A stretch of DNA of 64,000 bases from Chitinophagales bacterium (GCA_016787045.1 JAEUVA010000011.1:143028-207027), one strand, 5' to 3'. Positions 3,698 to 42,493 are shown, counted from the first letter of the stretch. Notes: generated by a model from the letters alone, not told the origin. A program made the numbers and translations.

Positions 3698-4543
3698 ATG
3701 GCTTCTATTCAAGAATTAGAAAAAATTGCCAAGCAAGTACGCAGAGATATTGTGCGCATGGTTCATGCGGTTAACAGCGGTCACCCAGGTGGCTCGCTGG
3801 GCTGCACCGAATATTTTGTGGCCCTGTACTTTGAAGTGATGAAACACAATAAAAACTTCAACATGGATGCCGTAGGTGAAGATGTGTTTTTTCTGAGCAA
3901 CGGGCACATCAGCCCGGTATGGTACAGCGTGTTGGCACATGCCGGATACTTTGATAAAAAAGAACTGAGCACTTTTCGTAAACTGAATACCCGCTTACAA
4001 GGCCACCCTACCACACACGAGCATCTGCCCGGTATCCGTGCTGCATCCGGTTCTTTGGGGCAGGGCATGAGTATGGCCATAGGCACTGCACTTACCAAAA
4101 AACTAAACAAAGATTCCTCTTTAGTTTACTCGCTGCATGGCGATGGCGAATTTCAGGAAGGCCAAATTTGGGAAGCACTTATGTTTGCTCCTCACAATAA
4201 AATTGACAACCTCATTTGCACTATAGATTACAACAATGCACAAATAGACGGCAGTTGTGATGAAGTACTCTCACACCGAAATCTGAAAAACAAAATTGAG
4301 GCCTTTGGCTGGGATGTACTGGAACTGAAAGAAGGCAACAATATGGCAGCCGTAGTAGCTGCGCTGAATGAAGCAAAATCAAGAACTGGAAAAGGCAAGC
4401 CGGTATTCATTATCATGAACACGCTAATGGGTTATGGAGTTGACTTTATGCAAGGCGGCCACAAGTGGCATGGAGTAGCACCAAACGATGCGCAGTTGGC
4501 GCAAGCACTTGCACAACTGGAAGAAACATTGGGTGATTATTAA
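3698..4543 (+). CDS. Transketolase, N-terminal (TPP-binding) subunit
   Basis: Motifs are HPGGSLGCTEYFVALY, GHISPVWYSVLA, GSLGQGMSMAIG, HGDGEFQEGQIWEA. I prefer the ATG at 3698 to the upstream GTG at 3662. Confidence 0.85.
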   Translation: MASIQELEKIAKQVRRDIVRMVHAVNSGHPGGSLGCTEYFVALYFEVMKHNKNFNMDAVGEDVFFLSNGHISPVWYSVLAHAGYFDKKELSTFRKLNTRLQGHPTTHEHLPGIRAASGSLGQGMSMAIGTALTKKLNKDSSLVYSLHGDGEFQEGQIWEALMFAPHNKIDNLICTIDYNNAQIDGSCDEVLSHRNLKNKIEAFGWDVLELKEGNNMAAVVAALNEAKSRTGKGKPVFIIMNTLMGYGVDFMQGGHKWHGVAPNDAQLAQALAQLEETLGDY

Positions 4544-4561: not shown

Positions 4562-6196
4562 TTAAAACGCAAACGTGTTTTTTCCGCCTTCGTCTTTGTA
4601 CACATAATTTACCACGCGTGGCCATAGTGGCGCTACTAACTCTGTTTCCCATTGGTTGATTTCGTTGGTCAGTTGCTTCACCAACTCCGGATGTTTAGCC
4701 GCCACATTTATTCGCTCTGTGCTGTCGGTGGGCATGTGGTACAGTAGTTGTGTGCCATCGTATTCGTTGAGCATGAGTTTCCATTCGTCTTTACGTATGG
4801 CCTTGTTGAATTCGCTGCGCCACAGCAGTTTTTCGTGAGGCGGCTCACTGGTTTTTGCGGTAAGGTGCGGCAGCAAATTTGCCCCATCAAATGTGCGGTC
4901 GGCTGGCAGCTCTATGCCCATATACGCAGTAATGGTGGCAAACACATCGAAAGAAATAACCGGATGATGGACTACGGTGTTGGGTGCAATTTTTCCCTTC
5001 CAATTCATCAAAAACGGCACCCGCAACCCGCCTTCAAAGTTGGTGAGCTTCCCTCCACGGTACGGGGCATTGTCTGTAGTGCCGTTGTACACCGCCCCAC
5101 CGTTATCGCTTAAAAAAACAATTAATGTGTTTTCGGCCAACCCGTTGCTCTCTACATATTTCATTACGCGGCCCACTTCATCATCCAGCTTTTTAATCAT
5201 AGCAGCATAAGTGCGCTTAACGGGGTCGGCAATGTGTTTAAACTGTTCGTAATATGAATTGGGTGCTTGCAGCGGTGAGTGAGGGGCATTGTAGGGTAAG
5301 TACAAAAAGAAGGGTTTGTCTTTGCTGCGTTCCATAAAGGCGATGGCTTCGTTGGTGAGCACATCGGTCAAGTATTTATTTTCTTCCATGCGCTCACAAC
5401 AATTACGCAAAATGGCGCAGTTGCCGGTGCGGCCTTCAGCTGTTTTCCATTGGTGCATATCCATGTAATCGGTACGTACCGGGGTGTGTGTAATGGCCGT
5501 ATCCTTTTTTTCAGCATACATAGTAAACGCTTCGTAAAATCCGTACTGATAGTCAAACCCCCTATTACACGGCAGCGCAAAATCAGCAGCGCCTAGGTGC
5601 CACTTGCCGGTAATGCCGCAGGTATAGCCGTATTTTTTCAAAAGCTCAGCCATGGTAATTTCAGATGGCGGCAGCCCTTGGCGCAGGCGCTCTTCTACCT
5701 CCGGCACTTCTTTGGTTTTGATGGGTGATAGCGGCTTAAAGCGCGGCAGCATTCGGAAACCAAAATACTCCAGCATGTTTTTTAAGTACCGGTGGTTGGG
5801 TTGAAATTCGTGCCCGAATCGTTGCTGATAACGCCCGGTCAACAATCCTGCCCGCGATGGCGAACAAACCGGAGAAGAAATATACCCTTCAGTAAATGTA
5901 GCCCCTTCGCGCCCCAAGCGGTCTATGTTTGGCGTATTGATTTTGGTGTTTCCGTAAAGAGATATGTCTGTTTGGCCTAAATCATCGGCCAAAATGAGAA
6001 TAATGTTTGGCCGATTGTACTTGCTATAATCCTCTATCGGTTCGCTGAGATATTGCTTTTTGCCTTCTATCAGTTTTTCATCAAAATATATTTTGAATTT
6101 ATCGCTCTCAAATTTTCGCAGTAAAAAGCCGCTGCTTACAGCAACTACACTTAGCAGCACAACAATAGCTATCAATACATGTTTCCGTTTCATCAT
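4562..6196 (-). CDS. Cys-type sulfatase (arylsulfatase family)
   Basis: There is an N-terminal TM/signal segment. Motifs are ILILADDLGQTD, SSPVCSPSRAGLLTGRY (the C-x-P-x-R formylglycine motif), NAPHSPL and FLSDNGG. Confidence 0.85.
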   Translation of the reverse strand: MMKRKHVLIAIVVLLSVVAVSSGFLLRKFESDKFKIYFDEKLIEGKKQYLSEPIEDYSKYNRPNIILILADDLGQTDISLYGNTKINTPNIDRLGREGATFTEGYISSPVCSPSRAGLLTGRYQQRFGHEFQPNHRYLKNMLEYFGFRMLPRFKPLSPIKTKEVPEVEERLRQGLPPSEITMAELLKKYGYTCGITGKWHLGAADFALPCNRGFDYQYGFYEAFTMYAEKKDTAITHTPVRTDYMDMHQWKTAEGRTGNCAILRNCCERMEENKYLTDVLTNEAIAFMERSKDKPFFLYLPYNAPHSPLQAPNSYYEQFKHIADPVKRTYAAMIKKLDDEVGRVMKYVESNGLAENTLIVFLSDNGGAVYNGTTDNAPYRGGKLTNFEGGLRVPFLMNWKGKIAPNTVVHHPVISFDVFATITAYMGIELPADRTFDGANLLPHLTAKTSEPPHEKLLWRSEFNKAIRKDEWKLMLNEYDGTQLLYHMPTDSTERINVAAKHPELVKQLTNEINQWETELVAPLWPRVVNYVYKDEGGKNTFAF

Positions 6197-6252: not shown

Positions 6253-7629
6253 ATGCAAACTTGCTACTACAGATTATGTATAACCGCATTATTGGTGGTT
6301 TGTTTGGTGTGGTCATTTGCCCAGCCCACTCAAGTATATAAGCCGTCTATTAACCGTGTGCTTTTTGTGCTGGATGTATCGGGCAGCATGAAAGAAAAAT
6401 GGGGCGCAAAAACGAAATACGAAACGGCCTGCGAGTTGTTGTACAAGCTCATTGACTCTGTAGAGCAAAAAAATCCGAATGTAGAGTTTGCCGTTCGCGT
6501 ACTCGGTTTTCAGTATAGCCGTACCGAAAAAAACTGCAAAGACTCTAAGTTACTTGTGCCTTTTTCTAAAAACAATGCTGCTAATATTCGCCTCGCGCTT
6601 AACAAAATTTCACCGCAGGGCATGACCCCCATTGCGTACTCGCTCCAGCAAGCCATTGGCGACTTTCCGGCAGATGGTAAAGCGCTAAACTCTATCATCA
6701 TTATTACCGATGGCAACGAAAACTGCGAAGGCAACCCGTGTGCTGTGGCTCAGCAGTTGATTGATAAACGAATTTCTGTGCGGCCGTTTGTGGTGGGTTT
6801 AGATGTAGGCGAAAAATATACTGATAAATTAAAATGTATTGGCACTGTGTTAGACACAAAAACCGATTCTTCGTTTTACAACACCGTTGGAGTAATTATC
6901 CTCCAAACACTCAATACCACCACCACCCAAATTAACTTGTTGGATGCTGCCGGCCAACCAACTGTTACCAATTTACCGTTTACGCTGTACGACCACTACA
7001 GCAAAAAAATACTTTACAACTTTGTACACTCCCTCAACGAAAAAGGAAACCCCGATACGCTGTTTCTGGATCCGGTGGGTATTTACGATTTGGAACTGCA
7101 CACTATCCCTCCGCTCAGAAAAAACGAAATTGAGTTAGTTGCAGGCAAGCACAATATAATAGCTTTAGATGTGCCGCTTGCTCTTTTTACTGCCGAAAGC
7201 CCGCTGAGTAACTTTGGCAATAATGATGCACAAGCTGTGGTGCGCAATGCAGCGGGCCAAATTTTACAAGTGCAGAATCTAAATATGGCCGAAAATTTTT
7301 TGAAACAAACCTATCGGGTGGAGGCCACCACTACTCCCGAGAGTTTTTTAGACACTACGTTTCTTGCCTTTACCGATAACCGATGGGCGGTTGCGCACTA
7401 TGGCATACTTTCCTTTAATGCAGATAGAAGCTATTTAACCAGTATTTATCAAAACGAACAACTTGTGTTGCGTTTAGATGTAAAGCCGAAGGTATACAAT
7501 CAAAAATTGCAGCCCGGCAAATACCGATTGGTGTATAAACCTACCGATAGCCGCGAGAGCAGCAGCACGCGTATTGTTAGGTTTGAAATAAAAGAAGCAC
7601 AAACTACCAGCATAGAACTAAAACCATGA
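6253..7629 (+). CDS. Secreted VWA-domain protein (paralogue 1)
   Basis: The signal peptide ends in WSFAQ. MIDAS (metal-binding site) motifs are VLFVLDVSGSMKEKW, GMTPIAYSL and IIIITDGNENC. The C-terminal ~250 aa are unassigned. Confidence 0.75.
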   Translation: MQTCYYRLCITALLVVCLVWSFAQPTQVYKPSINRVLFVLDVSGSMKEKWGAKTKYETACELLYKLIDSVEQKNPNVEFAVRVLGFQYSRTEKNCKDSKLLVPFSKNNAANIRLALNKISPQGMTPIAYSLQQAIGDFPADGKALNSIIIITDGNENCEGNPCAVAQQLIDKRISVRPFVVGLDVGEKYTDKLKCIGTVLDTKTDSSFYNTVGVIILQTLNTTTTQINLLDAAGQPTVTNLPFTLYDHYSKKILYNFVHSLNEKGNPDTLFLDPVGIYDLELHTIPPLRKNEIELVAGKHNIIALDVPLALFTAESPLSNFGNNDAQAVVRNAAGQILQVQNLNMAENFLKQTYRVEATTTPESFLDTTFLAFTDNRWAVAHYGILSFNADRSYLTSIYQNEQLVLRLDVKPKVYNQKLQPGKYRLVYKPTDSRESSSTRIVRFEIKEAQTTSIELKP

Positions 7630-9011
7630 TTCGCCAATCGCCATATTTTACCCTACTAACAATTGTTAGTTTATTTATGGCAATGGCTATGGCATCTCCT
7701 GTTTACGCACAAGAAAAAACCCGCATCCTTTTTTTGTTAGATGCTTCGCAAAGTATGCGCAACGAATGGAAGGGTGGCACCAAGTGGCAATCGGCCTGTG
7801 GTGCACTTTCAGAAATTGCCGATAGCATCAGCAAGTTGCCCAATGTAGAAATGGCTCTTCGGGTGTTTGGGCACATGTACCCTGAGCCGGACCGCAACTG
7901 CCGCGACACTCGGCTTGAGGTTGGTTTTGATACCGGTAATGCGGTGCGCATTATCAAGAAATTAGAGGAGATTCGTCCAAAAGGAATAACGCCATTGGTG
8001 TTGACTATAGAAAAAGCGGCAACCGATTTCGGAAGTTTTAATGGTAAGAAAGTGCTCCTCATCATTACCGATGGCGAGGATGCCTGCAACCGCGATATCT
8101 GCTCGGTACAAAAAGTGCTGGAAGAGAACAATGTTGTTCTTCGTCCATTCATTATTGGTATGAACTTGCAGCAAAATATTTTTCAATCTATGAGTTGCGT
8201 GGGCAAGCTCATCAACACCGCAAACCGTACAGAGTTTACCGAGGCGCTCAACAAATCTGTGCTCGAAGCCATTTCTAAAACCACACTACAAGTAAATCTT
8301 ACTGATGTAAATGGCAAGCCCACCGAAACAGATGTGAACATGAGCTTCTATGACGTACTTGATAATTCATTAAAATATGATTTGTACCACACGCTCAATC
8401 ACCGTGGGTTGCCCGATACGATGAGTATTGCTCCGGATTTTATTTACCGGATAGTGGTGCATACCATTCCACCGGTGCTCAAAGACAGTGTAGTGCTGAG
8501 GCGAAATACACATAATACAGTTACGGTACATGCTCCGCAAGGTGAGTTAAACATATCGCTGCAAAACAATGCGGCTACAAACAAAAGCAGCGAGCGCATC
8601 AAATGTTTAGTTTACCTAAATGGCAAAACACAAACGCTAAATGTGCAGCGCATTAACACTAAAGAAAAATACCTTACCGGTTTGTATGACATAGATATTC
8701 CGACACTACCTGTTACCGCTGTAAAAAACGTGCGCATTGAACAAAGCAAAACTACCGAAGTACAGGTGCCGGTGCCGGGCACACTCACCATCAACAAAAC
8801 GTTTGATGCTTATGGAGCCATTTTCGCAGTACAAAACAATAGCATGGTAAAAATTTATGATTTACACATCAAAGAAAAACAAGAGACCATAGCCATACAG
8901 CCCGGCAAGTATCGGCTAGTGTACCGCTCCAAAAACGCCCGAACCATCCACACCACTGTGGACAAAGAGTTTGAAATACAAAGCGGTGGAAGTTTAAGTT
9001 TGAAGTTGTAA
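7626..9011 (+). CDS. Secreted VWA-domain protein (paralogue 2)
   Basis: There is an ATGA overlap with paralogue 1. The signal peptide ends in PVYAQ. Motifs are ILFLLDASQSMRNEW, GITPLVLTI and LLIITDGEDAC. The C-terminal motif PGKYRLVY is shared with paralogue 1. Confidence 0.75.
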   Translation: MIRQSPYFTLLTIVSLFMAMAMASPVYAQEKTRILFLLDASQSMRNEWKGGTKWQSACGALSEIADSISKLPNVEMALRVFGHMYPEPDRNCRDTRLEVGFDTGNAVRIIKKLEEIRPKGITPLVLTIEKAATDFGSFNGKKVLLIITDGEDACNRDICSVQKVLEENNVVLRPFIIGMNLQQNIFQSMSCVGKLINTANRTEFTEALNKSVLEAISKTTLQVNLTDVNGKPTETDVNMSFYDVLDNSLKYDLYHTLNHRGLPDTMSIAPDFIYRIVVHTIPPVLKDSVVLRRNTHNTVTVHAPQGELNISLQNNAATNKSSERIKCLVYLNGKTQTLNVQRINTKEKYLTGLYDIDIPTLPVTAVKNVRIEQSKTTEVQVPVPGTLTINKTFDAYGAIFAVQNNSMVKIYDLHIKEKQETIAIQPGKYRLVYRSKNARTIHTTVDKEFEIQSGGSLSLKL

Positions 9012-9020: not shown

Positions 9021-9278
9021 ATGGATTTCCAGTTTATTGTTGATGAGAAGGGTCGCAAAAGTGCCGTGATTGTGCCTATAAAAGAATGGGAAAAGCGTGA
9101 TGCTGCCTATCAACTTAACAAAAAACAAAAGACAAAGCACAGTAAGAAAAAAGTATCGGATGGGCGAACAAAAGAAGAAATATTAGATGGCATCAGCAGA
9201 GCCGTAGAAGAAGTTAAACTTATTCGCGCAGGGAAACTGAAAGCAAAGACACTTAAAGACGTGTTGGATGAGTTATAG
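9021..9278 (+). CDS. Putative antitoxin
   Basis: This is an 85-aa ORF overlapping the downstream toxin gene by 11 nt. The call rests mainly on context. Confidence 0.5.
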   Translation: MDFQFIVDEKGRKSAVIVPIKEWEKRDAAYQLNKKQKTKHSKKKVSDGRTKEEILDGISRAVEEVKLIRAGKLKAKTLKDVLDEL

Positions 9279-9597
9279 TGTTATCGCCACCCCCGATTTT
9301 GTCAAAGAGTTAAAACCACTGGCAAAAAAGTACCCTTCTCTCAAAAATGAACTTTACGAACTTTCTGAATCATTATCCACTAATCCCAGACAGGGTGAAT
9401 CTCTTGGTTTAGATTCATACAAAATACGTTTGGCTATTCAGTCCAAAGGCAAGGGCAAAAGTGGTGGTGGGCGCATTATCACACATGTAGTGGTAGAAGA
9501 AACTCGTGTGTACATTATCTCCATTTACGATAAGTCCTCTCAGTCATCTATCTCTAAAGACGAAATCAAACAACGCATAAAAGCAATCAAAAAATAA
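9268..9597 (+). CDS. RelE/HigB-like type II toxin
   Basis: YKIRLAIQSKGKGKSGGGRIITHVV matches the GKSGG-R core that I associate with RelE/HigB-type toxins. The product is 109 aa. Its stop overlaps the tkt C-subunit ATG (TAATG). Confidence 0.6.
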   Translation: MSYSVIATPDFVKELKPLAKKYPSLKNELYELSESLSTNPRQGESLGLDSYKIRLAIQSKGKGKSGGGRIITHVVVEETRVYIISIYDKSSQSSISKDEIKQRIKAIKK

Positions 9598-10553
9598 TGG
9601 CACTTACCGACTATCCTTCCACCGGAAAAAAAGACACCCGCTCGGGTTTTGGCGCGGGCATTTTGCAACTGGGTCGCACCAACCCCAACGTAGTTGCGCT
9701 GTGTGCAGATTTAGCCGGCTCGCTCAAGTTAGATGATTTTATTAAAGAGTTTCCGGATAGATACATACAGTGCGGAGTAGCCGAAGCTAATATGATAGGC
9801 ATAGCTGCAGGGATGACTATTGGCGGAAAAATTCCGTTTGCCACCACGTTTGCCAACTTTGCCACCGGGCGAGTGTACGACCAAATACGACAAAGCGTGG
9901 CCTACAGCGGCAAAAACGTGAAAATTGCCGCCTCACATGCCGGGCTAACGCTAGGCGAAGATGGTGCCACACACCAGATTTTAGAAGACATCGGGCTCAT
10001 GCAAATGCTGCCGGGCATGGTGGTGATAAACCCCTGCGATTACAACCAAACTAAAGAAGCTACCATTGCGGCTGCTGAATATGTAGGTCCGGTATATCTC
10101 CGTTTTGGCCGCCCGGCCTGGCCCATTTTTATGCCCGAAGGAGGTTTCAAAATCGGCAAAGCCATTTTGATGAATGAAGGCAAAGACGTGAGCATTTTTG
10201 CCACCGGCCACTTGGTGTGGAAAGCCGTTGAAGCCGCCAAACAATTAGAAGCACAAGGGCTGTCTGTAGAACTCATCAACATACACACTATTAAACCGCT
10301 TGATGAAGAAGCTATTTTAAAGTCGGTGGCAAAAACCAAATGCGCAGTAGTGTGCGAAGAGCATAACATAATTGGCGGGCTGGGTTCATCTGTAGCTACT
10401 CTTCTCGCCAAACACGCACCCACTCCATTAGAGTTTGTAGCTGTAAACGACTCTTTTGGCGAGAGCGGAACCCCCGATCAGTTACTTACCAAGTATGGAT
10501 TAGATACGGTTGACGTAGTAAATGCGGTGAGCAGAGCGGTGAAGCGGAAGTAG
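9597..10553 (+). CDS. Transketolase, C-terminal (pyrimidine-binding) subunit
   Basis: Motifs are GVAEANMIGIAAGM, ASHAGLTLGEDGATHQ, INPCDYNQ, NIHTIKPLD. Confidence 0.9.
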   Translation: MALTDYPSTGKKDTRSGFGAGILQLGRTNPNVVALCADLAGSLKLDDFIKEFPDRYIQCGVAEANMIGIAAGMTIGGKIPFATTFANFATGRVYDQIRQSVAYSGKNVKIAASHAGLTLGEDGATHQILEDIGLMQMLPGMVVINPCDYNQTKEATIAAAEYVGPVYLRFGRPAWPIFMPEGGFKIGKAILMNEGKDVSIFATGHLVWKAVEAAKQLEAQGLSVELINIHTIKPLDEEAILKSVAKTKCAVVCEEHNIIGGLGSSVATLLAKHAPTPLEFVAVNDSFGESGTPDQLLTKYGLDTVDVVNAVSRAVKRK

Positions 10554-10647
10554 CACTCTAAACAAAAACGCTTTTACTGATTAATTTCCAGATTGGGCAA
10601 AAGTAGATTCGTCTTGTTTGATAAAATCTATACTTTTAGCCAAACCC

Positions 10648-11460
10648 ATGGCTAAAAGAACTTTTTTTCTTTTTCTGTTATTAAGTATGTGTTTGGTATT
10701 GCCGGCACAACACTTTGTGGCCAATGGCTCCGTATTAAATGCCCGCTACTATAGTAAGGTACCGTACCGCGAACTGTTGAAAGGCAAAAAAAACTATGGC
10801 GCATGGATGATCGTATCGGGCAGAGCGGCCGCCTTGCCACCAATGGGCGAAACTCGTTTAAGATATAGCACCTCCTCCGGCAGTAACGAATACCAGTCGT
10901 CTGGTTGGATGTATGGTTTCACTTCAGGGTTAGAAGGTAAGTTTACGTTTCGTAAAATCTTTTTTGCCAAAGCATTGCTGGGCGGTATGTACCGCAGAGC
11001 TAGTTTTAAAGATTACACTTTTGAAGAGGCCCATTTTATGTTGTCTGTATCTGTGGGCTTCCCGCTGCTCAACCGGTTAGATTTAGATATTGGTTATACC
11101 GGCTTTTTTGGCGATGGTTTGCTGGTGAAAAAAGGGGTCTATGCCACAGGTGTTGATGTAAAAGACATTAATTGCCTGCATATTGGTCTAACTCACCATT
11201 TTTCAAACACCTTCTCTGTTTTTGCAAATGGATTGTTCGGTTTTAAATCCAATGCATTACACTTCAAGTCTGATAATGATGACTCGCCACCGATGGATGT
11301 AGATCTTGGCGCACTAAGCGGCTTGTATGTAGAGCCCTTTTCTCCGGGTAATATGCTGGAGGTAGGTTTGCGTTGGAATATATTTCAAACCCTAAATGTA
11401 GGCGAGATAAGCGAGTCAGTGATTTATGTAAAAACCACCAATAAAAAGATTCGGAGATGA
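10648..11460 (+). CDS. Hypothetical exported protein, outer-membrane beta-barrel-like
   Basis: The signal peptide is MAKRTFFLFLLLSMCLVLPAQ. Alternating aromatic/hydrophobic strands include GYTGFFGDG, LHIGLTHHF, VFANGLFGF, LEVGLRWNIF. Confidence 0.45.
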   Translation: MAKRTFFLFLLLSMCLVLPAQHFVANGSVLNARYYSKVPYRELLKGKKNYGAWMIVSGRAAALPPMGETRLRYSTSSGSNEYQSSGWMYGFTSGLEGKFTFRKIFFAKALLGGMYRRASFKDYTFEEAHFMLSVSVGFPLLNRLDLDIGYTGFFGDGLLVKKGVYATGVDVKDINCLHIGLTHHFSNTFSVFANGLFGFKSNALHFKSDNDDSPPMDVDLGALSGLYVEPFSPGNMLEVGLRWNIFQTLNVGEISESVIYVKTTNKKIRR

Positions 11461-12119
11461 TGGGGCGTTGGTTATTTGTGGGTATGATTTTGTTGTGTGC
11501 GCTTACCGCTCGTTCACAAAAGTTTCGTAAGGGTATTAGTTTGGGGTACGGTATGAGCTATGCTCACACAAGAGAAAAAAATATTTACATAGACGAAAAA
11601 AAATTATCGGTTTTATATGCTAATGAATCAAAGAAGATTGAGCGAATGGTGGCGTATGGAAACGCGGGGGTGGGAGTTCCGTTGCTATTAGACTTGGGCT
11701 CTGTGCAACTGGGCATTGAGCCAAGCGTTTATTTCATACAATACGCCAAGAGCTACCGGAAAGCAAACTCAGAAGTAACCCAATCTGAAAAGTTTACTCA
11801 AGGCATGGTTGCCACGCCAGTTACACTACAGTACACGATGATGCCCAAACGCTACAAATCGCTTTATATTTCTGTAGGATATATGCCCACCTATGCTTTT
11901 GTAAAATCTACCGATCTTGATATTAGCTTACGCAAGCAAACCTTTACCAACATAGTAGATTCTTACCTGTATCTGGAAGGCGGTGTTTCTAACTGGTTTT
12001 TTAAAAAATACAAAGTGGGTAATGGCGACCGCACCTCGTTGTACTGTGCCTTTCGCTTAAATAATATCAATAAAAATACTATCTTATTTTTTGGCGTAAA
12101 AGTTTCTCTTATCCGGTAA
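11457..12119 (+). CDS. Hypothetical exported protein, outer-membrane beta-barrel-like
   Basis: There is an ATGA overlap with the upstream gene. The signal peptide is MMGRWLFVGMILLCALTARSQ. Strand-like segments include ISLGYGMSYAH, LYISVGYMPTYAF, ILFFGVKVSLI. Confidence 0.45.
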   Translation: MMGRWLFVGMILLCALTARSQKFRKGISLGYGMSYAHTREKNIYIDEKKLSVLYANESKKIERMVAYGNAGVGVPLLLDLGSVQLGIEPSVYFIQYAKSYRKANSEVTQSEKFTQGMVATPVTLQYTMMPKRYKSLYISVGYMPTYAFVKSTDLDISLRKQTFTNIVDSYLYLEGGVSNWFFKKYKVGNGDRTSLYCAFRLNNINKNTILFFGVKVSLIR

Positions 12120-13126
12120 TGAAATATCTGTATCCGATCATATTGTTTGTTTTAAGTACCCTATTGCAGTCGTGCTTTAAAGACAACTCCATTTCGTATC
12201 CTTATGACCATTACCCAAACGTGATTCATGCCAGCACTACCGTAGATAGTTTTTCTTCGAAATATGCTCGGGTAAGCGTTAGTCTGGTACCGTTCATTTT
12301 TGATGCTTCATCCGAAAAGTTTCTGCCATATCTTGATTTCGATTCGCTGGTAGTTAGCCCCGGCAACAACTATACCGTCAAGCCATTAGGAATTACTAAC
12401 AACACCTCTCCCCTGCCTCCCACCAATTTATCTCTGATGGTGTTGTTTGATTACTCTGCCGGATCGGGTAAATATTATGACCAACTTACGCCTCCTATTT
12501 TGCATTTGTATCAACAGTTGGGCGCTAATCAAGAGGTGGCTATTGCCATTAACTCCGGCACTCAAGATTCAACATTAAACATCGTTGGCGATGGATTTTA
12601 CAGTAGCTATGCCGAAAAACAAATAGATGAATTTGTGAGTTCTGCCCCCCTGCTGGGTGGTGGCGAAAACCTGATAAAGGGAATAGACAGCGCACTGACT
12701 TACTTGGCTCAACAAGGAAAACATTCCAATAAACAATTGCTCATTATCAGCAACAAACCTTATCTACTTACCTCTTACACCGTGGTCAATGCACTTGTTC
12801 AAAAAGCCAACTCGTTGGGCGTAACCATCAACTTTAAAAATGTTGGATACGCCACCAATATAAACAACTGGTTTTTTGAGGTTAACAAACTGGCCAGCGC
12901 TACAGGTGGATTGTATACCACAAGCGATGCGGACGAACTGTTGGGGCACTCATTAAGCTTGCTTCGCCCCGATAGGCAAACTGTTACAGCTACATTTGAA
13001 ATTATCAGAGCCCAATCGTATTACAACTCGGGGTACTATTATGCTAACGGTTTAGATATCTACTACAAGGCCTATAACACCCACGAATTAGAAGATTTTG
13101 TGCGATTTGTTTTTGAAATACCATGA
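12119..13126 (+). CDS. Lipoprotein with VWA-like domain (degenerate MIDAS)
   Basis: The lipobox is LSTLLQSC. VWA-like positions read MVLFDYSAGSG, GGGENLIKGIDSAL and LLIISNKPY, with the metal ligands partly lost. The start overlaps the upstream stop by 1 nt. Confidence 0.45.
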   Translation: MKYLYPIILFVLSTLLQSCFKDNSISYPYDHYPNVIHASTTVDSFSSKYARVSVSLVPFIFDASSEKFLPYLDFDSLVVSPGNNYTVKPLGITNNTSPLPPTNLSLMVLFDYSAGSGKYYDQLTPPILHLYQQLGANQEVAIAINSGTQDSTLNIVGDGFYSSYAEKQIDEFVSSAPLLGGGENLIKGIDSALTYLAQQGKHSNKQLLIISNKPYLLTSYTVVNALVQKANSLGVTINFKNVGYATNINNWFFEVNKLASATGGLYTTSDADELLGHSLSLLRPDRQTVTATFEIIRAQSYYNSGYYYANGLDIYYKAYNTHELEDFVRFVFEIP

Positions 13127-16100
13127 GTAAACCAAACTTCACTTTCAGCGTTCCCGGCAAAACCATACTACTCATAGTATGGTTATTCTTGCTTTCTGAT
13201 TTACACGCACAGCAACAGCTGGAGGTAACGGTACAAGGCGGCCATACCAGTTATATCCGCAAGATGTGTTTTAGCTCAGACGGTTCTTTATTAGCAAGTG
13301 CTGATGAATCCGGTAAGTTAACAGTATGGAATGTTTCTACCGGATCTCAGCTAAGCAACTCAGCAACCGGATTACGAATATTAAGCATGTTATTTGTTAA
13401 TGATACAACTATAGCATATGCCGGTAAGGATCTGCTTCAGGAAATTATTCCGCAAAAGGAGGTTGTAAAGAAAGGGCTGTTTAACCGCACCAAAGAAGCC
13501 ACCTTAGAAACACCTACTGATTTTATTCTATACAATATCTCTACTGGAGCCAGGCGCGAAACTGCTTCCATAGCAGATTTGATGCCACAATCAACCACCT
13601 ACAGCCAAGACTTTAATCTTATCTACAAAGGCCAAATTGTATATACCCACAGGTACCATGACGAGGCATACACCGATTTTTTTGTTGATGCCGCGAACAA
13701 CCGCATTTATACTAGTTGCTCGGATGGGCGCTACTATGTGATAAGCACCAGCGGAAAAAGAATTAAAAAATCGGGCAGATACCATGCCGGCCAAATGACA
13801 AGTATTGCTGTGTCGGCAAACACAAAGTATATTGCCTCTGCCGGGCAAGACAAAAAAATTGTGGTTTGGGATGGCAGCCGCCACGAGCCGCTAAAAGAGC
13901 TATTGCCCCGCGTAAATGCGATTACTGCACTCACCATAGTACCCGGCAAAAACGAAGTGATGTATGCCGATATCAACGGTCGCCTAAAACTGTTAAACCT
14001 GGCAGATTACAAACTACCGGTTTCCCTTATTTCTTCTAACAAAGTATTTATCGATAAGCTCGCAGCTTCCGGCAAATGGGGCATTGCCGCATCAGATATC
14101 AGCAACAAAATATCCTTTTACAAAAACAGTCAAATAGTAAACACCGTCACCCAGTTTCCCGGCATCAGCAAGCGAATTATTAAAAACAGCAATACATTTA
14201 AAGTAAACAGTAACAGGCATCTTTCGTTTAGCCCCGATTCTTTGGCACTATTGGCCAGTGGTGGGTTTTACAAAAACCGGCTTACGGTTTTCAACCTTCA
14301 AAAAAAGTACCGGTACTCCCCCATTACCGGGCCATACCGCTACAACATAGAGCGGCAAGAGCGCTCTGCATTTTTGACAGACAATACTTTTTTGAGCAGC
14401 GATGGCAAACAGTTTCTTAATTGGGAGTCTTCTAGAACCGGTACGTTTTTCAATGCCAGCGAGCCCAAAATACCTACTTGTCATAATCTGATGTATTATA
14501 GACCTGATACTTGCATTGCAGTATGTAAAAACGCCATATATTCTATTAGCAAAAATCAACTGTTACAGTACCATTTACTAACCGACAAGGTAAATGCCAG
14601 CGCTTACAGTTTGTTACAACACTATAAGTACAACCAATTTGTGGTGTCTAATGCCGGTACTTTACAGTTTGGCAACCGCACTTCCGGTAATTTTGTGTCT
14701 TCCGGCAACTCACATAGTGGCGACATTACCGGCATCTCCTATATTGATAATGGCTCTAAAGTAATTTCCGGGTCAGTAGATGGTACCCTTAAAATTTGGA
14801 ACTCTACTACCGGTGAGTTGATATTAACCGTGTTGCCTATTGATGAAAGCGAACGCATGCTGATTACTCCAGATAACTACTATATGGCCCCTCGCGGGTT
14901 AACCAATGAAGTAGGGTTTAAGCTGGGCATGAATTATTACCCGGCAGAGCAGTTTGACTTGAAGTACAACCGGCCAGATATTGTACTTAGTCGGCTAAAA
15001 GGTGCTGACGACCACCTCATATCACTGCTGCATAACGCTTACAAAAAAAGATTACAACGGTTAGGGTTGACCGAAGAAGAGTTGTCTGCCGAGGCAAACG
15101 TTCCACAAGTAGAGATAAGCAACAAAAAAAGTGTGCCTCTAAGTACTAAAGAAAGCGTACTCAAGTTGGATATACGGGCATCTGATGCTTTGCACCCTCT
15201 CAAAAAAATTAATGTTTGGGTTAACAACGTTCCCATATTTGGCAAGTCGGGGGTGCCTGCAACCGGTAAGTCTTGGGGGAAAAACGGGGTGGCCATACCT
15301 CTCACCCCGGGCAATAACCTAATACAGGTGAGCTGTGTAAACAATGCCGGTGCAGAGTCGCTGCGCGATGCCGTATCGGTAACATACAGCGCATCCAAAC
15401 AAACCTTACCCGATTTATTTATCGTTTCCATCTCGGTATCTGACTATGAAGACAAACGATGGAGCTTAAAATACCCTGTAAAAGATGGAAGAGATATGGT
15501 GGCTACTTTTACCGAAAATAAAAAACTGTTTGGGCAAATACATATAGACACGCTTTTTAATGCTTCGGCTACAACTAAAAATATTGAAGCCCTGAGACAA
15601 AAACTGCTACAGTCAAAAACAAACGATTACATCATCGTATTTTTATCTGGCCATGGGCTCTTGAGCAGCAACGGAGATTTTTATTTTGCTACCTGGGATT
15701 GTAACTTCAACCAACCCGAAAAAAACGGTTTGCCTTTTTTAAGCGTTGAAAATTTACTGGATAGCATCCCCGCTCGCAACAAGCTACTATTAATGGATGC
15801 CTGCCACTCTGGAGAATTAGATAAAACCGACTGGCAGAATCCTTCCGCAACAAAGCAACCCGATGATAAAAACATACAAGGGCTATTATTAAGCAGCGGA
15901 AAAAAAGGAGCAATAGTTGATAATGAAGAAAAGCCCGCATCTCTTCACGGACTCAACAACTCGTTTGAACTAATGAAAGACCTGTTTACCGATGTGAATA
16001 AAGGATCGGGCACTATAGTGATATCTGCGGCCGCAGGCAACAGCTTTGCATTAGAGGGTGACAAATGGAAAAATGGTGTGTTTACCTACAGTTTGTTAGA

Positions 16101-16263
16101 GGGCATAAAAACCCGTAAGGCCGACTTGAATGGAGACAAGCGGATAAATGTGGGAGAACTAAAAGAATATGTTTCTAACCGGGTTTACCAGATAACCGAT
16201 GGCAAGCAAAAGCCCACCTCTCGCCAAGAAAACCTATACAACAATTTTGTTATCTGGAAATGA
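13123..16263 (+). CDS. Exported WD40-repeat / caspase (peptidase C14) domain protein
   Basis: The signal peptide ends in LSDLHAQ. WD40 units include GHTSYIRKMCFSSDGSLLASADESGKLTVWNV and GDITGISYIDNGSKVISGSVDGTLKIWNS. The C-terminal caspase unit has IIVFLSGHG (His codon 15652-15654) and LLLMDACHSGE (Cys codon 15802-15804). Confidence 0.8.
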   Translation: MSKPNFTFSVPGKTILLIVWLFLLSDLHAQQQLEVTVQGGHTSYIRKMCFSSDGSLLASADESGKLTVWNVSTGSQLSNSATGLRILSMLFVNDTTIAYAGKDLLQEIIPQKEVVKKGLFNRTKEATLETPTDFILYNISTGARRETASIADLMPQSTTYSQDFNLIYKGQIVYTHRYHDEAYTDFFVDAANNRIYTSCSDGRYYVISTSGKRIKKSGRYHAGQMTSIAVSANTKYIASAGQDKKIVVWDGSRHEPLKELLPRVNAITALTIVPGKNEVMYADINGRLKLLNLADYKLPVSLISSNKVFIDKLAASGKWGIAASDISNKISFYKNSQIVNTVTQFPGISKRIIKNSNTFKVNSNRHLSFSPDSLALLASGGFYKNRLTVFNLQKKYRYSPITGPYRYNIERQERSAFLTDNTFLSSDGKQFLNWESSRTGTFFNASEPKIPTCHNLMYYRPDTCIAVCKNAIYSISKNQLLQYHLLTDKVNASAYSLLQHYKYNQFVVSNAGTLQFGNRTSGNFVSSGNSHSGDITGISYIDNGSKVISGSVDGTLKIWNSTTGELILTVLPIDESERMLITPDNYYMAPRGLTNEVGFKLGMNYYPAEQFDLKYNRPDIVLSRLKGADDHLISLLHNAYKKRLQRLGLTEEELSAEANVPQVEISNKKSVPLSTKESVLKLDIRASDALHPLKKINVWVNNVPIFGKSGVPATGKSWGKNGVAIPLTPGNNLIQVSCVNNAGAESLRDAVSVTYSASKQTLPDLFIVSISVSDYEDKRWSLKYPVKDGRDMVATFTENKKLFGQIHIDTLFNASATTKNIEALRQKLLQSKTNDYIIVFLSGHGLLSSNGDFYFATWDCNFNQPEKNGLPFLSVENLLDSIPARNKLLLMDACHSGELDKTDWQNPSATKQPDDKNIQGLLLSSGKKGAIVDNEEKPASLHGLNNSFELMKDLFTDVNKGSGTIVISAAAGNSFALEGDKWKNGVFTYSLLEGIKTRKADLNGDKRINVGELKEYVSNRVYQITDGKQKPTSRQENLYNNFVIWK

Positions 16264-17467: not shown

Positions 17468-20400
17468 TTGCCTAACTTGGGAAGCTTGGTCAATTTCGGG
17501 GTACTGTCCGGGGGCACCATAACCGCTACAGATACAATTCAAGCGCATGGTTATGTTGGCGGTGTATCACTTGTAGATACCAAGATACATGCAACTAATA
17601 TTTACCAAGGTGGAGCTTTAGTAAGCACCGCTTTGGCTGATCTGAATACTGCAAAGAGTAATATGCTGGCAATGGGGGGAAACAACATAAACGGGCTGCT
17701 AAACGGGCAGGTGATTACCGAAGGAACATATTCCGTTACCGGTAATGCAAATTTGAATGATACCTTGTTTTTAGTTGGCAATCAAAGTTCGGTCATAGTA
17801 TTCAATATTAGTGGTAACCTTACTGTGGGGGTCAATGCCAGAGTAGTGTGGCAAAGCGGCAGTATGGTAAATCCTGAGCAGATATATTGGAATGTGCAGG
17901 GTACTACTGCCATAAATTCATCCTGTTGGTTTAATGGCGTGGTGCTTGGCACACAAAACATAACCGTCAATGGCATATTCTACGGTAATGTAACTTTATT
18001 TTCATTACAGAATGTAACCTTTGATGGCCAACAATTTTTATATCACAATAGCCCTTATGTAATGGGTTTTGGCGTTACATCCGTATATAACATGTTGGGT
18101 AGCCGAAGCGCACCCTGCGAAGATAACTCTCCACTAATTTGTGGTGAAATTGTTAAGAGTGGTGGCTTTGAGGTATACGATGTGAATGTAGGTTGTCCGA
18201 AAGATATTGTCCTATCGGGTCAGTATTTCCCGGGCTGTAGTTGGGAAACAACTCCGTTTCCACAAGCGGTTCCAACCCCCGATTTGTTTAATACCTGTTC
18301 TGTTGGTACCGATGTGGCAGTGCCGTTAAACGGCTACGGTACACAGCAACCACAATCAGGTAGTGGTTATGCCGGCATTTTTTCTGGAGATAATGCGCCC
18401 GGTTCTTTTTACACAGAAGGTTTGACCCAGCCCTTAGCAAACTTGGTGGTGGGTAGGGTATATTATACTGAGGTGTTTGTTTGCTTAGCCGAGGCCTCAA
18501 CATTGGCCAGCAGAATGGGATTTATGCTTACAGACGGAAGTGCTCAAAGTTATTTTACTTACCTTCATCCCACGCCTATTACAAGTAAAGCTGCATGGAT
18601 TCCAATGCGTGCATGTTTTACGGCTACACCGGATCACAAAGAGATATGGATAACCAGAAATATTAACGGCAACACACCACCTGTGCCTGTGGCGTCTGGC
18701 CCGGGGCCTTATACATACAGTAATTTTTTCAATTTTAACTTTGCCTATTACTATGTTGATGGCGTTTCTGTAAAACCTTTGGCAGATGCCGGGTTGGGCA
18801 AAACTGTTTGCTCGTTGAATACAACTCTCGGTAACGGGTGTGACCCTCTTACAGGAGTTACTTATAGTTGGTCTAAGTCCTCCGGTCCGGGCACAGTTGG
18901 TTTTGCGCCATCAAATGCGATGAACACCACTGCTACATTTTCAACTGCCGGAACGTATGTGTTAACATTAACTGCATCATTTGGCGGATGCACCGCCACC
19001 CATGACGTAACGGTTACCGTTTCTTTGCCTCCCAATGCCGCCATAAGCCCATCAAATGCAACTATCTGTTCGGGCCAACAAGTTACACTCACGGCCATTG
19101 GTGGTACTACTTACAGCTGGAACAATGGGCTGGGATCCGGGGCAACAAAAACAGTATCTCCTTTATCAACCACTAACTACACTGTAACTGTAACCAATGC
19201 CGCCAACTGCTCCGCTACGGCAACGGCATCTGTTACTGTGAATAATGCTCCTTTTACCATCACAAAAACGGTCAGTAACGCTACGCCTATTACACAAAGC
19301 AATTTTACCTATACCATCACCCTTACTAATATCACCTCCAGCAGCATAGTTGTTTCATTAACAGATAATGTTCCAGCCAGTTTGCAAATCATATCTGCCC
19401 CCGGCCTGAACATAACAGGACAACAGTTAGCTAACGCAAATATTACAATAGCACCAAACGCCTCTGTTAATTTTGTGGTTACAGTAAAAAGTACTCTCAC
19501 ATTTGGCGGCAGTACACAGTGTAACTATAGCTCGCAAAGCGTAATAAATACAGCCACAGCATCACTTGTTGGCGGTAGTTGTTCTTTTTCGCTTTATTCA
19601 AGTGCCACAGTTACCGTGCTGAGTCACCGAGTAGTTGGAAGTGCAGTTAATATACCTACTGTTTCACAAGCCATTGCCCAAGGCATGCTGCTTCCAATGG
19701 GGGGGCCTACTAACTCCACCAACACAAGCCAAACCTTTACCATAGACGGCAACTTTATTGTGGATATGAATTATGATTTTGGTAACAGCGCTCAGTTTAT
19801 CAATTCATATGCAAATTGCCGCCCCGGAGCACAAGTTACTGTAAATAGTAACTGCAAGTTATCAGGTTATAACCTACGTTTTCAACCTTGTACTCAACTT
19901 TGGAAAGGGATAGTGGTTACTGGTAGCTCGTGGTTTACGTCTGCGGGCGAATTGTTATTAAGGAATTCTACCGTCAACGGTGCTCAATACGGAGTGACGC
20001 TTTATGATGGATCTAAAATTGCGGTTTCAAATACAGAGTTTCGTGAATGCTTTGTTGGCGTTTATTTTCCTGATGTTTATTTACTAACTCCATCCGTAGT
20101 TTTTACCTCCCCTTTTGCCGGCAATATCTTTAACAGCTTCGGAAATATGCCAGCGGCATATTCAGGTATGGTGAATGCCACCAATCAACCCACCGTAGCT
20201 CAAATACCTACCACCAATCGCAGGACATGGGCAGGTATTCATGTGGGGAGATTATCCAACTTCACTTGTTCTGGCAATACGTCTGCTACTACCTTTAGTG
20301 GATTAGCCAACGGTATAGTAGCTAATGAATGTGCTCTTAATGTTACCGGCTCATTTTTTAATGATATTCTGCCGTATGGCTATAACTTCAATGGTTTACA

Positions 20401-21625
20401 AGGTAACGGCATACATTCCAAAGCCGCATTGGTGCAGCAGATCGGAGGAAATCCCTATGCCTCTGTCAGTTTATACCAAAGAGGAAATGGTTTTAATACC
20501 AATCCTTTTACTTGCTACAGTAGTTTTGGAAATTGCACTAATGGTATTGTTGCTGTTGGGGTAAACGTAGATATTGCACAAAACTGTTTTAGCTATACCA
20601 ACGCGATTTCAGTAACCGGTGTAAAGCGAGGCAATATTCGCATTAACAACAATAACTTTCACACAACCAATAAAGCCATTCTGTTGTCTAACAACGACCC
20701 GGTTAACATTATGGATGTAGGCCCAAGTACGGTAGTACAGAATGGGGGCGTATCGGCTATAGACATACAAGAACAAAACAATGCTCCATTGACCAGCGCA
20801 GAAATTCACCACAATCGCATTCAGATGAATACCAACTTGTTTACCGGCCTTGCGCTGAACAGTTGCAGTGGGGTAAACAGTACTAACTACAACTATAAAG
20901 TTTACAACAACACGGTTATACTCAATACGCCAACCAGCAATTTGATGGGAGTTAGTTATCAAAACTGTCAGTTTGTAGAATCGTCACAAAACTTGGTGGC
21001 TGGCACTTCTGCCTCTACCCAAAGTTTTGTGGCCGGATACCCCACAGCTATTAACTACAGCACCTCTAGTATGCGGCTAAAGTGCGACTCCGTAGCCAAT
21101 GTGTACAACGGAAAAAAAATTTACGGTACCTGCAATAATACCACTATCCGGGGCTGTGTAATGAACAACCATACCTACGGCTTTTACCAAACTAATGGCG
21201 GCACCATACCCCCACAGGGCAGCAGTACCGAGAGTTATGGAAACCGCTGGCGGGGTAGCTACATTACCAATTCTGCAAAAAATGAAAATGCAGCCCTCAC
21301 TCTGATTTATGTAAAGGGTACATCTCTGCCATACTGGCCACATGCGTCAGGTATAACTACGCCTAATACGGGGTGGTTTACCTCATCCGTAGGAAATCCT
21401 TTTTTGTGCACTGGTATTTTTGGAGCAGGTTTTAAAAATGAAGAAGATGATGCCATACTCAATTCGTTAGACGAACAAATACTTGATGATAGTTTACGCT
21501 TTGAAGAGTTTAATGAACAACTTAAATGGCAAAACGAAATGGCTCTGTATGAAAAGTTGAAGGATAATCCGGAAGTGTTAGAGCAGAAAGCTACAGCAGA
21601 AGTGTTTTTGAGCAAAAACAGGTAG
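17468..21625 (+). CDS. Giant surface protein (ice-binding-like DUF3494 N-domain, Ig/PKD-like and DUF11-like repeats, parallel beta-helix), frameshifted at both ends
   Basis: The N-terminus LGSLVNFGVLSGGTITATD..ALADLNTAKSNM resembles the DUF3494 family. Other units are PKD-like SKSSGPGTVGFAP..TAGTYVLTLTA, DUF11-like FTITKTVSNATPITQSNFTYTITLTN, and beta-helix-like repeats. As written it starts at a TTG with no signal peptide. Confidence 0.7.
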   Translation: MPNLGSLVNFGVLSGGTITATDTIQAHGYVGGVSLVDTKIHATNIYQGGALVSTALADLNTAKSNMLAMGGNNINGLLNGQVITEGTYSVTGNANLNDTLFLVGNQSSVIVFNISGNLTVGVNARVVWQSGSMVNPEQIYWNVQGTTAINSSCWFNGVVLGTQNITVNGIFYGNVTLFSLQNVTFDGQQFLYHNSPYVMGFGVTSVYNMLGSRSAPCEDNSPLICGEIVKSGGFEVYDVNVGCPKDIVLSGQYFPGCSWETTPFPQAVPTPDLFNTCSVGTDVAVPLNGYGTQQPQSGSGYAGIFSGDNAPGSFYTEGLTQPLANLVVGRVYYTEVFVCLAEASTLASRMGFMLTDGSAQSYFTYLHPTPITSKAAWIPMRACFTATPDHKEIWITRNINGNTPPVPVASGPGPYTYSNFFNFNFAYYYVDGVSVKPLADAGLGKTVCSLNTTLGNGCDPLTGVTYSWSKSSGPGTVGFAPSNAMNTTATFSTAGTYVLTLTASFGGCTATHDVTVTVSLPPNAAISPSNATICSGQQVTLTAIGGTTYSWNNGLGSGATKTVSPLSTTNYTVTVTNAANCSATATASVTVNNAPFTITKTVSNATPITQSNFTYTITLTNITSSSIVVSLTDNVPASLQIISAPGLNITGQQLANANITIAPNASVNFVVTVKSTLTFGGSTQCNYSSQSVINTATASLVGGSCSFSLYSSATVTVLSHRVVGSAVNIPTVSQAIAQGMLLPMGGPTNSTNTSQTFTIDGNFIVDMNYDFGNSAQFINSYANCRPGAQVTVNSNCKLSGYNLRFQPCTQLWKGIVVTGSSWFTSAGELLLRNSTVNGAQYGVTLYDGSKIAVSNTEFRECFVGVYFPDVYLLTPSVVFTSPFAGNIFNSFGNMPAAYSGMVNATNQPTVAQIPTTNRRTWAGIHVGRLSNFTCSGNTSATTFSGLANGIVANECALNVTGSFFNDILPYGYNFNGLQGNGIHSKAALVQQIGGNPYASVSLYQRGNGFNTNPFTCYSSFGNCTNGIVAVGVNVDIAQNCFSYTNAISVTGVKRGNIRINNNNFHTTNKAILLSNNDPVNIMDVGPSTVVQNGGVSAIDIQEQNNAPLTSAEIHHNRIQMNTNLFTGLALNSCSGVNSTNYNYKVYNNTVILNTPTSNLMGVSYQNCQFVESSQNLVAGTSASTQSFVAGYPTAINYSTSSMRLKCDSVANVYNGKKIYGTCNNTTIRGCVMNNHTYGFYQTNGGTIPPQGSSTESYGNRWRGSYITNSAKNENAALTLIYVKGTSLPYWPHASGITTPNTGWFTSSVGNPFLCTGIFGAGFKNEEDDAILNSLDEQILDDSLRFEEFNEQLKWQNEMALYEKLKDNPEVLEQKATAEVFLSKNR

Positions 21626-21639
21626 AAGCTATAGGCGAA

Positions 21640-21825
21640 TTGAGCGCAGCCAATGAAGCCAAACTATACGACAACCTCGGTCGGGTAATATCAGAACAAC
21701 TATTTATGCTCAGCAATAATCGTTATCGTTTAGGAACCGAAAAATTAAGTCAGGGATTATATTTTATACGTGTCAGTAAAAATTCAGAGTTTATATTCTC
21801 TGATAAGTTCACAATACATCGGTAA
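21640..21825 (+). CDS. Detached T9SS C-terminal sorting-domain fragment
   Basis: KLYDNLGRVISEQ..LSQGLYFIRV..DKFTIHR matches the distal two-thirds of the sorting domains seen in three other proteins in this window. This frame is open from 21568. Confidence 0.5.
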   Translation: MSAANEAKLYDNLGRVISEQLFMLSNNRYRLGTEKLSQGLYFIRVSKNSEFIFSDKFTIHR

Positions 21826-25125: not shown

Positions 25126-25134
25126 GCGGCAATG

Positions 25135-42490: not shown

Positions 42491-42493
42491 AAA

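Follow-up and report, generated by a model that had tools for sequence, protein, structure and literature searches.

What a caspase-type protease might do outside the cytoplasm of a bacterium is the question raised by a four-gene locus of a Chitinophagales bacterium. Bacterial caspase-type proteases have so far mostly been seen as cytoplasmic effectors of death or defence systems driven by nucleoside triphosphatases (NTPases). The locus occupies positions 10,554 to 16,263 of a stretch of 64,000 nucleotides (GCA_016787045.1, JAEUVA010000011.1:143028-207027; hereafter the window). Its four open reading frames (ORF1 to ORF4) had been picked out in a preliminary description as a translationally coupled envelope operon that ends in an exported WD40-caspase. 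The sequence supports a tight, co-oriented and coupled set of four genes whose linkage is conserved and whose products carry export signals, together with the folds assigned to ORF2, ORF3, and ORF4 and an intact active site. We propose that the products form a conserved Bacteroidota complex that would be tethered in the envelope and would carry out limited proteolysis directed at Arg or Lys, and we give the whole chain of this proposal an even chance.

The four ORFs tile the + strand (Table 1) and are joined by overlapping stop and start codons (ATGA at 11457-11460, TAATG at 12117-12121, and ATGA at 13123-13126). The junctions were exactly as first described, and the N-termini quoted at that time (..LSMCLVLPAQ, ..LCALTARSQ, ..STLLQSC, and ..LSDLHAQ) match the translations. 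The start of the unit had been placed at TTG 10618, which is less likely for ORF1 than ATG 10648; the latter is the most likely start because the gene calls of a related contig begin at the equivalent ATG, giving a protein of 270 aa. The ratios of nonsynonymous to synonymous substitution rates (dN/dS) were determined against the close relative L008, in which ORF4 is 97% identical. The values for ORF1, ORF2, ORF3, and ORF4 were 0.054, 0.128, 0.046, and 0.079, respectively, and are of similar order to that of the neighbouring transketolase gene (0.036). These ratios indicate that all four are genuine coding sequences under purifying selection.

The four genes are probably co-transcribed from the 94-nt leader that precedes ORF1. 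The leader is 100% identical to those of L008 and L009, and it is probably regulatory because this identity is kept despite synonymous divergence (dS) of 0.2-0.34 in the flanking genes. A hairpin with a 10-bp stem (10633-10658) encloses the ATG of ORF1, and the leader and the hairpin together (10554-10658) may constitute a candidate regulatory element. A scan for sigma-70 promoters gave background level only, with a sigma-70 model that is not informative for Bacteroidota. An Rfam scan gave no match, and a tRNA gene scan found none.

In regards to ORF4, the Pfam searches, the codon read-out, and an alignment of 92 relatives agreed with the initial assignment of WD40 repeats followed by a C-terminal C14 unit with an intact His-Cys dyad. 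The WD40 model (PF00400) scored 70.9 bits against a cut-off of 27, and the Peptidase_C14 model (PF00656) matched aa 770-1042 with 57.2 bits (gathering cut-off, 21.4; E 2.5e-15). The dyad consists of His844 (CAT 15652-15654, in SGHG) and Cys894 (TGC 15802-15804, in DACHSG), and H844, G845, D892, and C894 were invariant in 92 of 92 relatives. An AlphaFold2 (AF2) model calculated on a 28-sequence alignment (predicted local distance difference test (pLDDT) score, 67.8; predicted template modelling score (pTM), 0.64) was composed of an all-beta part (34-581), a linker (approximately 585-646), an Ig-like part (662-755), and an alpha/beta caspase part (765-1046). The Ig-like part and, outside a disordered loop, the caspase part reached a pLDDT of ~90. 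The model places a disordered insert (aa 900-951) right after the catalytic Cys. PDB sequence searches gave 2ymu and PkwA for the propeller region, and the top Foldseek matches of the all-beta region (E 2e-24) were the tandem WD40 propellers of 2ymu, Utp21, Gemin5, and Apaf-1. The number of propeller blades is uncertain because parts of the WD40 model are of low confidence. PDB sequence and profile searches with the caspase domain gave nothing useful.

No Pfam model covers aa 575-770 of ORF4, which comprise the linker and the Ig-like region. The Y-N-R-P-D motif of the linker was present in 88-89 of the 92 relatives, and the Ig-like region of the family carries a conserved VNxVP..G...L..G.N.I motif. 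The linker with the Ig-like unit is a domain without a name and is a marker of the entire family.

The DACHSG motif of ORF4 is of the metacaspase kind, with D892 two residues before the catalytic Cys. We take Asp211 of TbMCA2 to lie likewise two residues before its catalytic Cys213. We infer a preference of ORF4 for Arg or Lys because the invariant Asp stands two residues before the Cys, as in metacaspases; by analogy, the matching positions of Asp892 and Asp211 suggest basic specificity at P1. C14B enzymes cleave after Arg or Lys, and Asp211 of TbMCA2 lines the S1 pocket (PMC4357240).

Export was assessed with hydrophobicity and lipobox heuristics applied to the N-termini, and all four products are predicted to exit the cytoplasm via Sec. 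The Sec- or lipoprotein-type N-termini noted for the window proved to be a property of the family. A signal-like segment, typically ending in ..AQ before the first WD40 blade, was found in 77 of 85 5'-complete ORF4 relatives, and the 8 relatives without it were fragments or had miscalled starts. A lipobox was present in all full-length ORF3 homologues. The Bacteroidetes surface-export signal that follows the lipobox Cys (lipoprotein export signal, LES) is given as K-(D/E)2 or Q-A-(D/E)2 (PMC5080379). Many ORF3 homologues read C-K-K-E-E-E, C-K-R-E-E-E, or C-T-K-N-D-E-E from the lipidated Cys, a pattern that resembles the LES and suggests surface exposure. ORF3 of the window reads C-F-K-D-N, with one acidic residue, and is a weaker version of the pattern.

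ORF3 had been described as a lipoprotein with a VWA-like fold whose metal-ion-dependent adhesion site (MIDAS) is partly lost, and this was borne out at the level of the fold by AF2, Foldseek, and the alignments. The AF2 model, obtained with an alignment of ORF3 and three relatives (pLDDT, 58.9; pTM, 0.59), consists of a beta-alpha-beta domain and, around it, a beta-sandwich formed by strands of both termini. The top matches of this model in the PDB, searched with Foldseek, were all VWA proteins with a probability of 1.0: 5a8j (an ArnB paralogue, E 6e-10), 4fx5, ITIH1, PilB, and CMG2. The ORF3 sequence had no match in Pfam, including the VWA models, or in NCBIfam. Two ORF3 homologues matched the Pfam VWA model in the correct register, below threshold (E 0.035 and 0.026). 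PDB sequence and profile searches with ORF3 and its family returned no VWA protein, and the sole match was at chance level (E 0.17). ORF3 thus resembles VWA proteins in its modelled fold and is not placed in the Pfam VWA family by its sequence. The MIDAS positions (DxSxS...T...D) are degenerate in ORF3 (DYSAGS, GGGENL, and ISNKP) and in most homologues; the homologue in L018 keeps DQSGS.

HMMER, run exhaustively over 1.84 billion representatives, gave only three real relatives of ORF3, P0122 (43%), P0124 (26%), and P0125 (27%). A word-indexed search with ORF3 returned only ORF3 itself, a later profile search added no relatives, and a locus search with the ORF3 alignment found no relative in genome contigs or metagenome contigs. 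The relatives in genomes surfaced only via loci that were fetched with ORF4 and then searched locally with hidden Markov models (HMMs). In every locus examined, the ORF3 family was found only directly upstream of a WD40-caspase.

ORF1 and ORF2 had both been considered small outer-membrane beta-barrels, which stood for ORF2 and was overstated for ORF1. ORF2 matched PF13568 (OMP_b-brl_2) marginally, at 27.6 bits with a gathering cut-off of 27. An hhalign comparison also relates it (probability, 94.9%; E 4.6e-8) to the family of barrels encoded immediately upstream of the caspase in 20 genome loci, and other barrel genes at related caspase loci match PF13568 with E values down to 3.4e-18. The score of ORF2 against the PorT/SprT model NF052311 was 18.1 bits, far under the cut-off of 125. 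ORF1 had no match in Pfam or NCBIfam, and hhalign comparison with ORF2 and every barrel family tried gave probabilities of <1%, i.e. no relation. The amphipathic beta periodicity and the Phe, Tyr, Trp, and Gly content of ORF1 were like those of outer-membrane protein controls and unlike those of soluble controls. The ORF1 family is narrow: no relatives were detected outside its own lineage, and a 36% identical orthologue occupies the same position in locus L011.

To place the module among its relatives, GTDB species representatives were scanned with the QFDLKYNRP motif, which gave 373 matches. The protease family is large, and the module is far from unique to the window. The neighbourhoods were studied in 76 loci kept from the 373 matches, using local ORF calls and iterative HMM searches, and these loci contained 78 5'-complete caspase genes. 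Almost all of the 76 loci are from Bacteroidota (Bacteroidales, including rumen metagenome-assembled genomes, Marinilabiliales, Paludibacter, Chitinophaga, Microscillaceae, Crocinitomicaceae, and Polaribacter), and a few are from Ignavibacteria, Spirochaetota, and Myxococcota.

Immediately upstream of the caspase gene stood a VWA-like lipoprotein gene in 13 of 78 cases, 12 of which have intergenic distances of -14 to +11 nt, and an ORF2-like barrel gene in 20, at distances of -20 to +65 nt. A lipoprotein-caspase or barrel-caspase pairing was therefore found for 33 of the 78 genes. The neighbour was a caspase paralogue in 16 cases, an opposite-strand (divergent) gene in 18, and another same-strand gene in 9; 2 caspase genes had no upstream sequence. 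Two types of neighbourhood were recognized. In type A, a small lipoprotein (~155 aa), a barrel (~220 aa), a second barrel (~245 aa), and a VWA-like lipoprotein precede the caspase, and 7 of 23 type-A upstream proteins match OMP_b-brl_2. In type B, an ORF2-like barrel precedes the caspase, often with a second, divergent OMP_b-brl_2 gene. The operon of the window is a diverged member of type A, in which ORF1 is equivalent to the first barrel by position and not detectably by sequence. The ~155-aa lipoprotein that heads type A (L032:3989-4456; also in L022, L023, L028, L034, L037, and L042) has no Pfam match and no counterpart in the window.

The complete arrangement recurs in L011, where the same four genes stand in the same order with overlapping junctions and the products of ORF1 to ORF4 are 36, 36, 43, and 47% identical, respectively. 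L012 contains an upstream fragment followed by the lipoprotein and the WD40 protein, and L010 contains the lipoprotein followed by an overlapping WD40-C14 protein. The nearest ORF4 homologues found by word search (P0003, P0004, and P0005; 28-36% identity) lack the upstream genes and, taken by themselves, would wrongly point to a lack of conservation of the order; the contexts of the three ORF3 relatives (L010 to L012) are decisive. The gene order is thus kept at 36-47% identity in L011, with pairwise linkage in 33 of 78 relatives, and the preliminary description does not fail on the ground it had named, a lack of conservation in related genomes.

Two further observations were made at these loci. 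Single Bacteroidales genomes contain tandem arrays of 3-5 paralogous WD40-caspase genes with signal peptides (L001, L020, L021/L050, and L078). Large TPR proteins are encoded directly downstream of the caspase gene in L069 (8535-12005) and L013 (4514-6835); one, from a rumen Bacteroidales, combines TPR with a CHAT protease domain and has a signal-like N-terminus, and the other combines TPR with a SpoIIE phosphatase domain.

These features can be combined into a scheme for limited proteolysis in the envelope. ORF1 and ORF2 would insert in the outer membrane as small beta-barrels, ORF3 would be lipidated at Cys19 and sit on the outer membrane, and ORF4 would be released into the periplasm. At the outer membrane, the protease may be held or gated by the barrels and the VWA-fold lipoprotein. 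Having lost its metal site, the VWA fold of ORF3 would probably serve as a protein-protein adaptor that docks the protease. The propellers of ORF4 would choose a protein partner or substrate, and the caspase domain would cleave envelope or surface proteins in a limited way, after Arg or Lys. Activating autoprocessing could plausibly occur in the loop of aa 900-951 that follows the catalytic Cys.

Several points weigh against this scheme. Of the 78 family members, 45 lack both partners, and the partners are therefore not obligatory. The barrel fold of ORF1 is putative, and the amphipathic-strand statistics point to it weakly. The confidence of the ORF3 model is only moderate, as its pLDDT shows. 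The localisation of the products derives from heuristics, and the chain as a whole is built on sequence and models throughout. Moreover, many ORF3 homologues carry the LES-like pattern, and if ORF3 faces outward and ORF4 is periplasmic, no direct binding between them is possible.

The main rival is a role in surveillance or defence, which we consider unlikely, though not strongly so. Here, the WD40 repeats would be sensors that bind foreign proteins entering the envelope, for example tail or ejection proteins of phages, injected toxins, or the enzymes of predators, and would switch on the caspase. The protease would then destroy the invader or cut the envelope proteins of its own cell to abort infection, as an NTPase-free periplasmic counterpart of STAND/WD40-caspase immunity. 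The combination of sensor repeats with a caspase is found in conflict systems (PMC7159879), and the arrays of 3-5 paralogues, the TPR-CHAT and TPR-SpoIIE neighbours, and a generic caspase match in PADLOC point in the same direction. Among relatives, the WD40 half has diverged far more rapidly than the caspase half (17-41% versus 27-57% identity). Within the species, however, the WD40 region has a dN/dS of 0.059, which indicates strong purifying selection, and gives no diversifying signal. PADLOC matched no defined defence system, and the operon lies in a syntenic housekeeping context and not in a mobile or defence island. The sole adjacent toxin-antitoxin pair looks like a strain-specific insertion unrelated to the module. 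A related formulation, to which we assign a still smaller probability, is an NTPase-independent extracytoplasmic sensor-protease that would be anchored on the barrels via the VWA-fold lipoprotein, detect foreign or damaged envelope proteins, and respond by caspase-type proteolysis.

We regard a secreted protease with a nutritional or offensive role as quite doubtful. The barrels and the lipoprotein would in that case aid export or display on the surface or on vesicles, and external proteins would be degraded or processed as by gingipains. Extracellular clan CD proteases are well known in Bacteroidota, and one of them, gingipain R, is specific for Arg and folds like a caspase (PMC4357240). Many ORF3 homologues carry LES-like motifs that suggest exposure at the surface, and the window is rich in secreted hydrolases and cargo of the type IX secretion system (T9SS). 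However, no T9SS sorting domain (Por_Secre_tail or CHU_C) was found for ORF4 among the best 25 of 41 Pfam families or in both NCBIfam matches, and there is no room for one because Peptidase_C14 reaches residue 1042 of 1046. Genuine cargo is encoded nearby: unlike ORF4, the neighbouring products of 21825-23369 and 25135-27228 have T9SS C-terminal domains. In addition, no route is known for a soluble protein of 115 kDa through barrels of 8-10 strands, and C14 enzymes are usually site-specific processors and not bulk degraders. Adjacency without shared function, in which ORF1 to ORF3 would be generic envelope proteins that merely lie upstream of the caspase gene, is very unlikely: the 45 of 78 relatives without these neighbours and the lack of detectable ORF1 relatives outside its own lineage favour it, but the order and overlapping junctions are kept at 36-47% protein identity, the ORF3 family is confined to the position directly upstream of a WD40-caspase, and the barrel-caspase pair recurs in 20 loci at distances of -20 to +65 nt. 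These two readings rank below limited proteolysis and surveillance.

The operon lies between the gene for the C-terminal part of transketolase and a YebC-family gene, and the synteny of the flanking housekeeping genes is kept in relatives. Two more secreted VWA proteins (6253-7629 and 7626-9011) and another caspase-fold protein had been reported within the same 16 kb. They do exist; their linkage to the module does not hold, as housekeeping genes lie between and the genes do not recur beside the module elsewhere. The second C14 protein (245-1972, - strand, 575 aa) has a caspase domain at aa 333-542 (E 2e-24) and a hydrophobic N-terminus. It lacks WD40 repeats, and Pfam matches nothing in its N-terminal region of 330 aa. 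The neighbouring VWA genes were considered as ORF3 paralogues, and this was dropped after the ORF3 family showed no profile relation to the VWA protein of 6253-7629.

Separate genes encode the N- and C-terminal parts of the transketolase (3662-4543 and 9597-10553) and lie ~5 kb apart. Between them are a sulfatase gene (4562-6196, - strand), the two secreted VWA genes, and a toxin-antitoxin pair. This pair, RelB-like (9021-9278) and RelE-like (9268-9597), gave sub-threshold Pfam matches and lies between the second VWA gene and the transketolase C-terminal gene. It is absent from L008, where these two genes are 13 nt apart. On the other side of the operon, a cluster of secreted or T9SS proteins extends over 17468-29138 (Table 1). 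The G+C content dips to 0.35 at 42001-44000, where a gene beside mnmG (42494-44194, - strand) encodes a Big_5/DUF2141 Ig-like protein; this region is ordinary-looking.

Table 1. Features of the four-gene module and of the secreted-protein cluster, in window coordinates.
Feature	Position	Strand	Basis
Intergenic leader, 94 nt, candidate promoter/regulatory region	10554..10647	+	identity to relatives
ORF1, 270 aa, begins MAKRTFF; open frame extends up to TTG 10618; signal peptide (..LSMCLVLPAQ) and putative small outer-membrane beta-barrel	10648..11460	+	composition/amphipathy
ORF2, 219-220 aa; signal peptide (..LCALTARSQ) and OMP_b-brl_2 type outer-membrane barrel	11457..12119	+	PF13568
ORF3, 335-aa predicted lipoprotein (LLQSC|FKDN); N/C beta-sandwich and VWA-like alpha/beta domain	12119..13126	+	AF2, Foldseek
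ORF4, 1046-aa WD40-caspase	13123..16263	+	
ORF4 signal peptide, aa 1-30 (..LFLLSDLHAQ|QQ)	13123..13212	+	hydrophobic segment; model helix aa 12-27
ORF4 WD40 region, tandem beta-propeller, aa 31-580	13213..14862	+	PF00400, Foldseek
ORF4 conserved linker, aa 581-660, family hallmark QFDLKYNRPDIVL	14863..15102	+	YNRPD conservation; small strands and helices
ORF4 Ig-like beta-sandwich, aa 661-760	15103..15402	+	all-beta in AF2 model, pLDDT ~90
ORF4 C14 caspase/metacaspase-type domain, aa 761-1046	15403..16263	+	PF00656
1385-aa protein, ice-binding-like, PKD, and DUF11 domains	17468-21625		
Protein with T9SS C-terminal domain	21825-23369		
S8 subtilase with T9SS C-terminal domain and SprB repeat	25135-27228	-	

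In this module, an intact, strongly conserved C14 protease would lie outside the cytoplasm together with a large WD40 platform for recognition, and with a genetic link to outer-membrane parts. It ranges across Bacteroidota, from rumen and gut Bacteroidales to Paludibacter, Chitinophaga, and marine Flavobacteriales. Three families without a name are defined by it: the VWA-fold lipoprotein, the YNRPD linker with its Ig unit, and the ORF1 protein. The module is a compact, genetically tractable target for the role of caspase-fold enzymes in the diderm envelope, be it protein maturation, envelope turnover, or defence.

Among known proteins, those that combine a VWA domain with a beta-sandwich (5a8j, the Sec23/24-like trunk, and 4fx5) align with the ORF3 model over ~350 columns (E 6e-10 to 8e-10; probability, 1.0). 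The identity is only 7-11%, the MIDAS of ORF3 is degenerate, and ORF3 is a predicted lipoprotein of a diderm envelope. ORF4 shares the C14 His-Cys dyad, the Asp two residues before the Cys, and the WD40 partner with prokaryotic WD40 metacaspases or orthocaspases (C14B). In a 2012 survey of prokaryotic metacaspases, WD40 was the commonest partner domain (10.9% of sequences), and the authors noted N-terminal helices, 'likely signal peptides', along with extracellular localisation, neighbouring OmpA, and operons with multiple metacaspases in Bacteroidetes (Asplund-Samuelsson et al. 2012, PMC3501461). The premise that the known bacterial WD40-caspases are all cytoplasmic was therefore too strong, because probable exported metacaspases had already been reported. 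Compared with the proteins of the survey, ORF4 has an N-terminal WD40 region and a C-terminal caspase joined by the YNRPD linker and an Ig-like domain without a Pfam model. Neither this arrangement nor the fixed operon linkage to outer-membrane barrel(s) and a VWA-fold lipoprotein is described in the survey.

Conflict systems (STAND/NACHT-WD40, vWA-MoxR ternary, and EACC1-associated caspases) combine vWA, propeller, and caspase around cytoplasmic NTPases (Kaur et al. 2020, PMC7159879). They share with the module a vWA-fold protein, beta-propeller repeats, a caspase effector, and a paralogue-rich family. They are cytoplasmic and centred on an NTPase (MoxR, STAND, or GTPase), whereas the module lacks an NTPase, EACC1, and an effector-associated domain, and all its parts have export signals. 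ORF4 scored 82.1 bits against the EACC1-type caspase model NF047832, below the cut-off of 140. Pfam and NCBIfam scans detected no NTPase domain in ORF1 to ORF4 or in the flanking genes, and no EACC1, gasdermin, or pore-former was encoded in the module according to Pfam, NCBIfam, and PADLOC, as the preliminary description had stated for NTPases and pore-formers. PADLOC gave only generic 'caspase' and HEAT-ARM repeat matches and nothing for ORF1 to ORF3. A described system of this architecture had been thought lacking, and our literature search likewise found no paper on the module, the ORF3 family, or the YNRPD linker; its coverage was incomplete, and this is absence of evidence only.

Within Bacteroidota, there is a likeness to the T9SS attachment complex of Porphyromonas (PorU/PorZ/PorV/PorQ), an assembly of a caspase-fold protease, a beta-propeller, and outer-membrane barrels, and to the gingipains. 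These systems share with the module the envelope setting, a caspase-fold cysteine protease, beta-propellers, and outer-membrane barrels, and Arg/Lys-directed limited proteolysis of envelope cargo would be a common theme. ORF4 belongs to C14 and not to C25 and has no T9SS C-terminal domain, and the resemblance is one of architecture only. WD40 prokaryotic metacaspases and secreted clan CD proteases in Bacteroidota are thus already known; what is unusual and testable in the module is the predicted extracytoplasmic location of the protease and its fixed partnership with the outer membrane.

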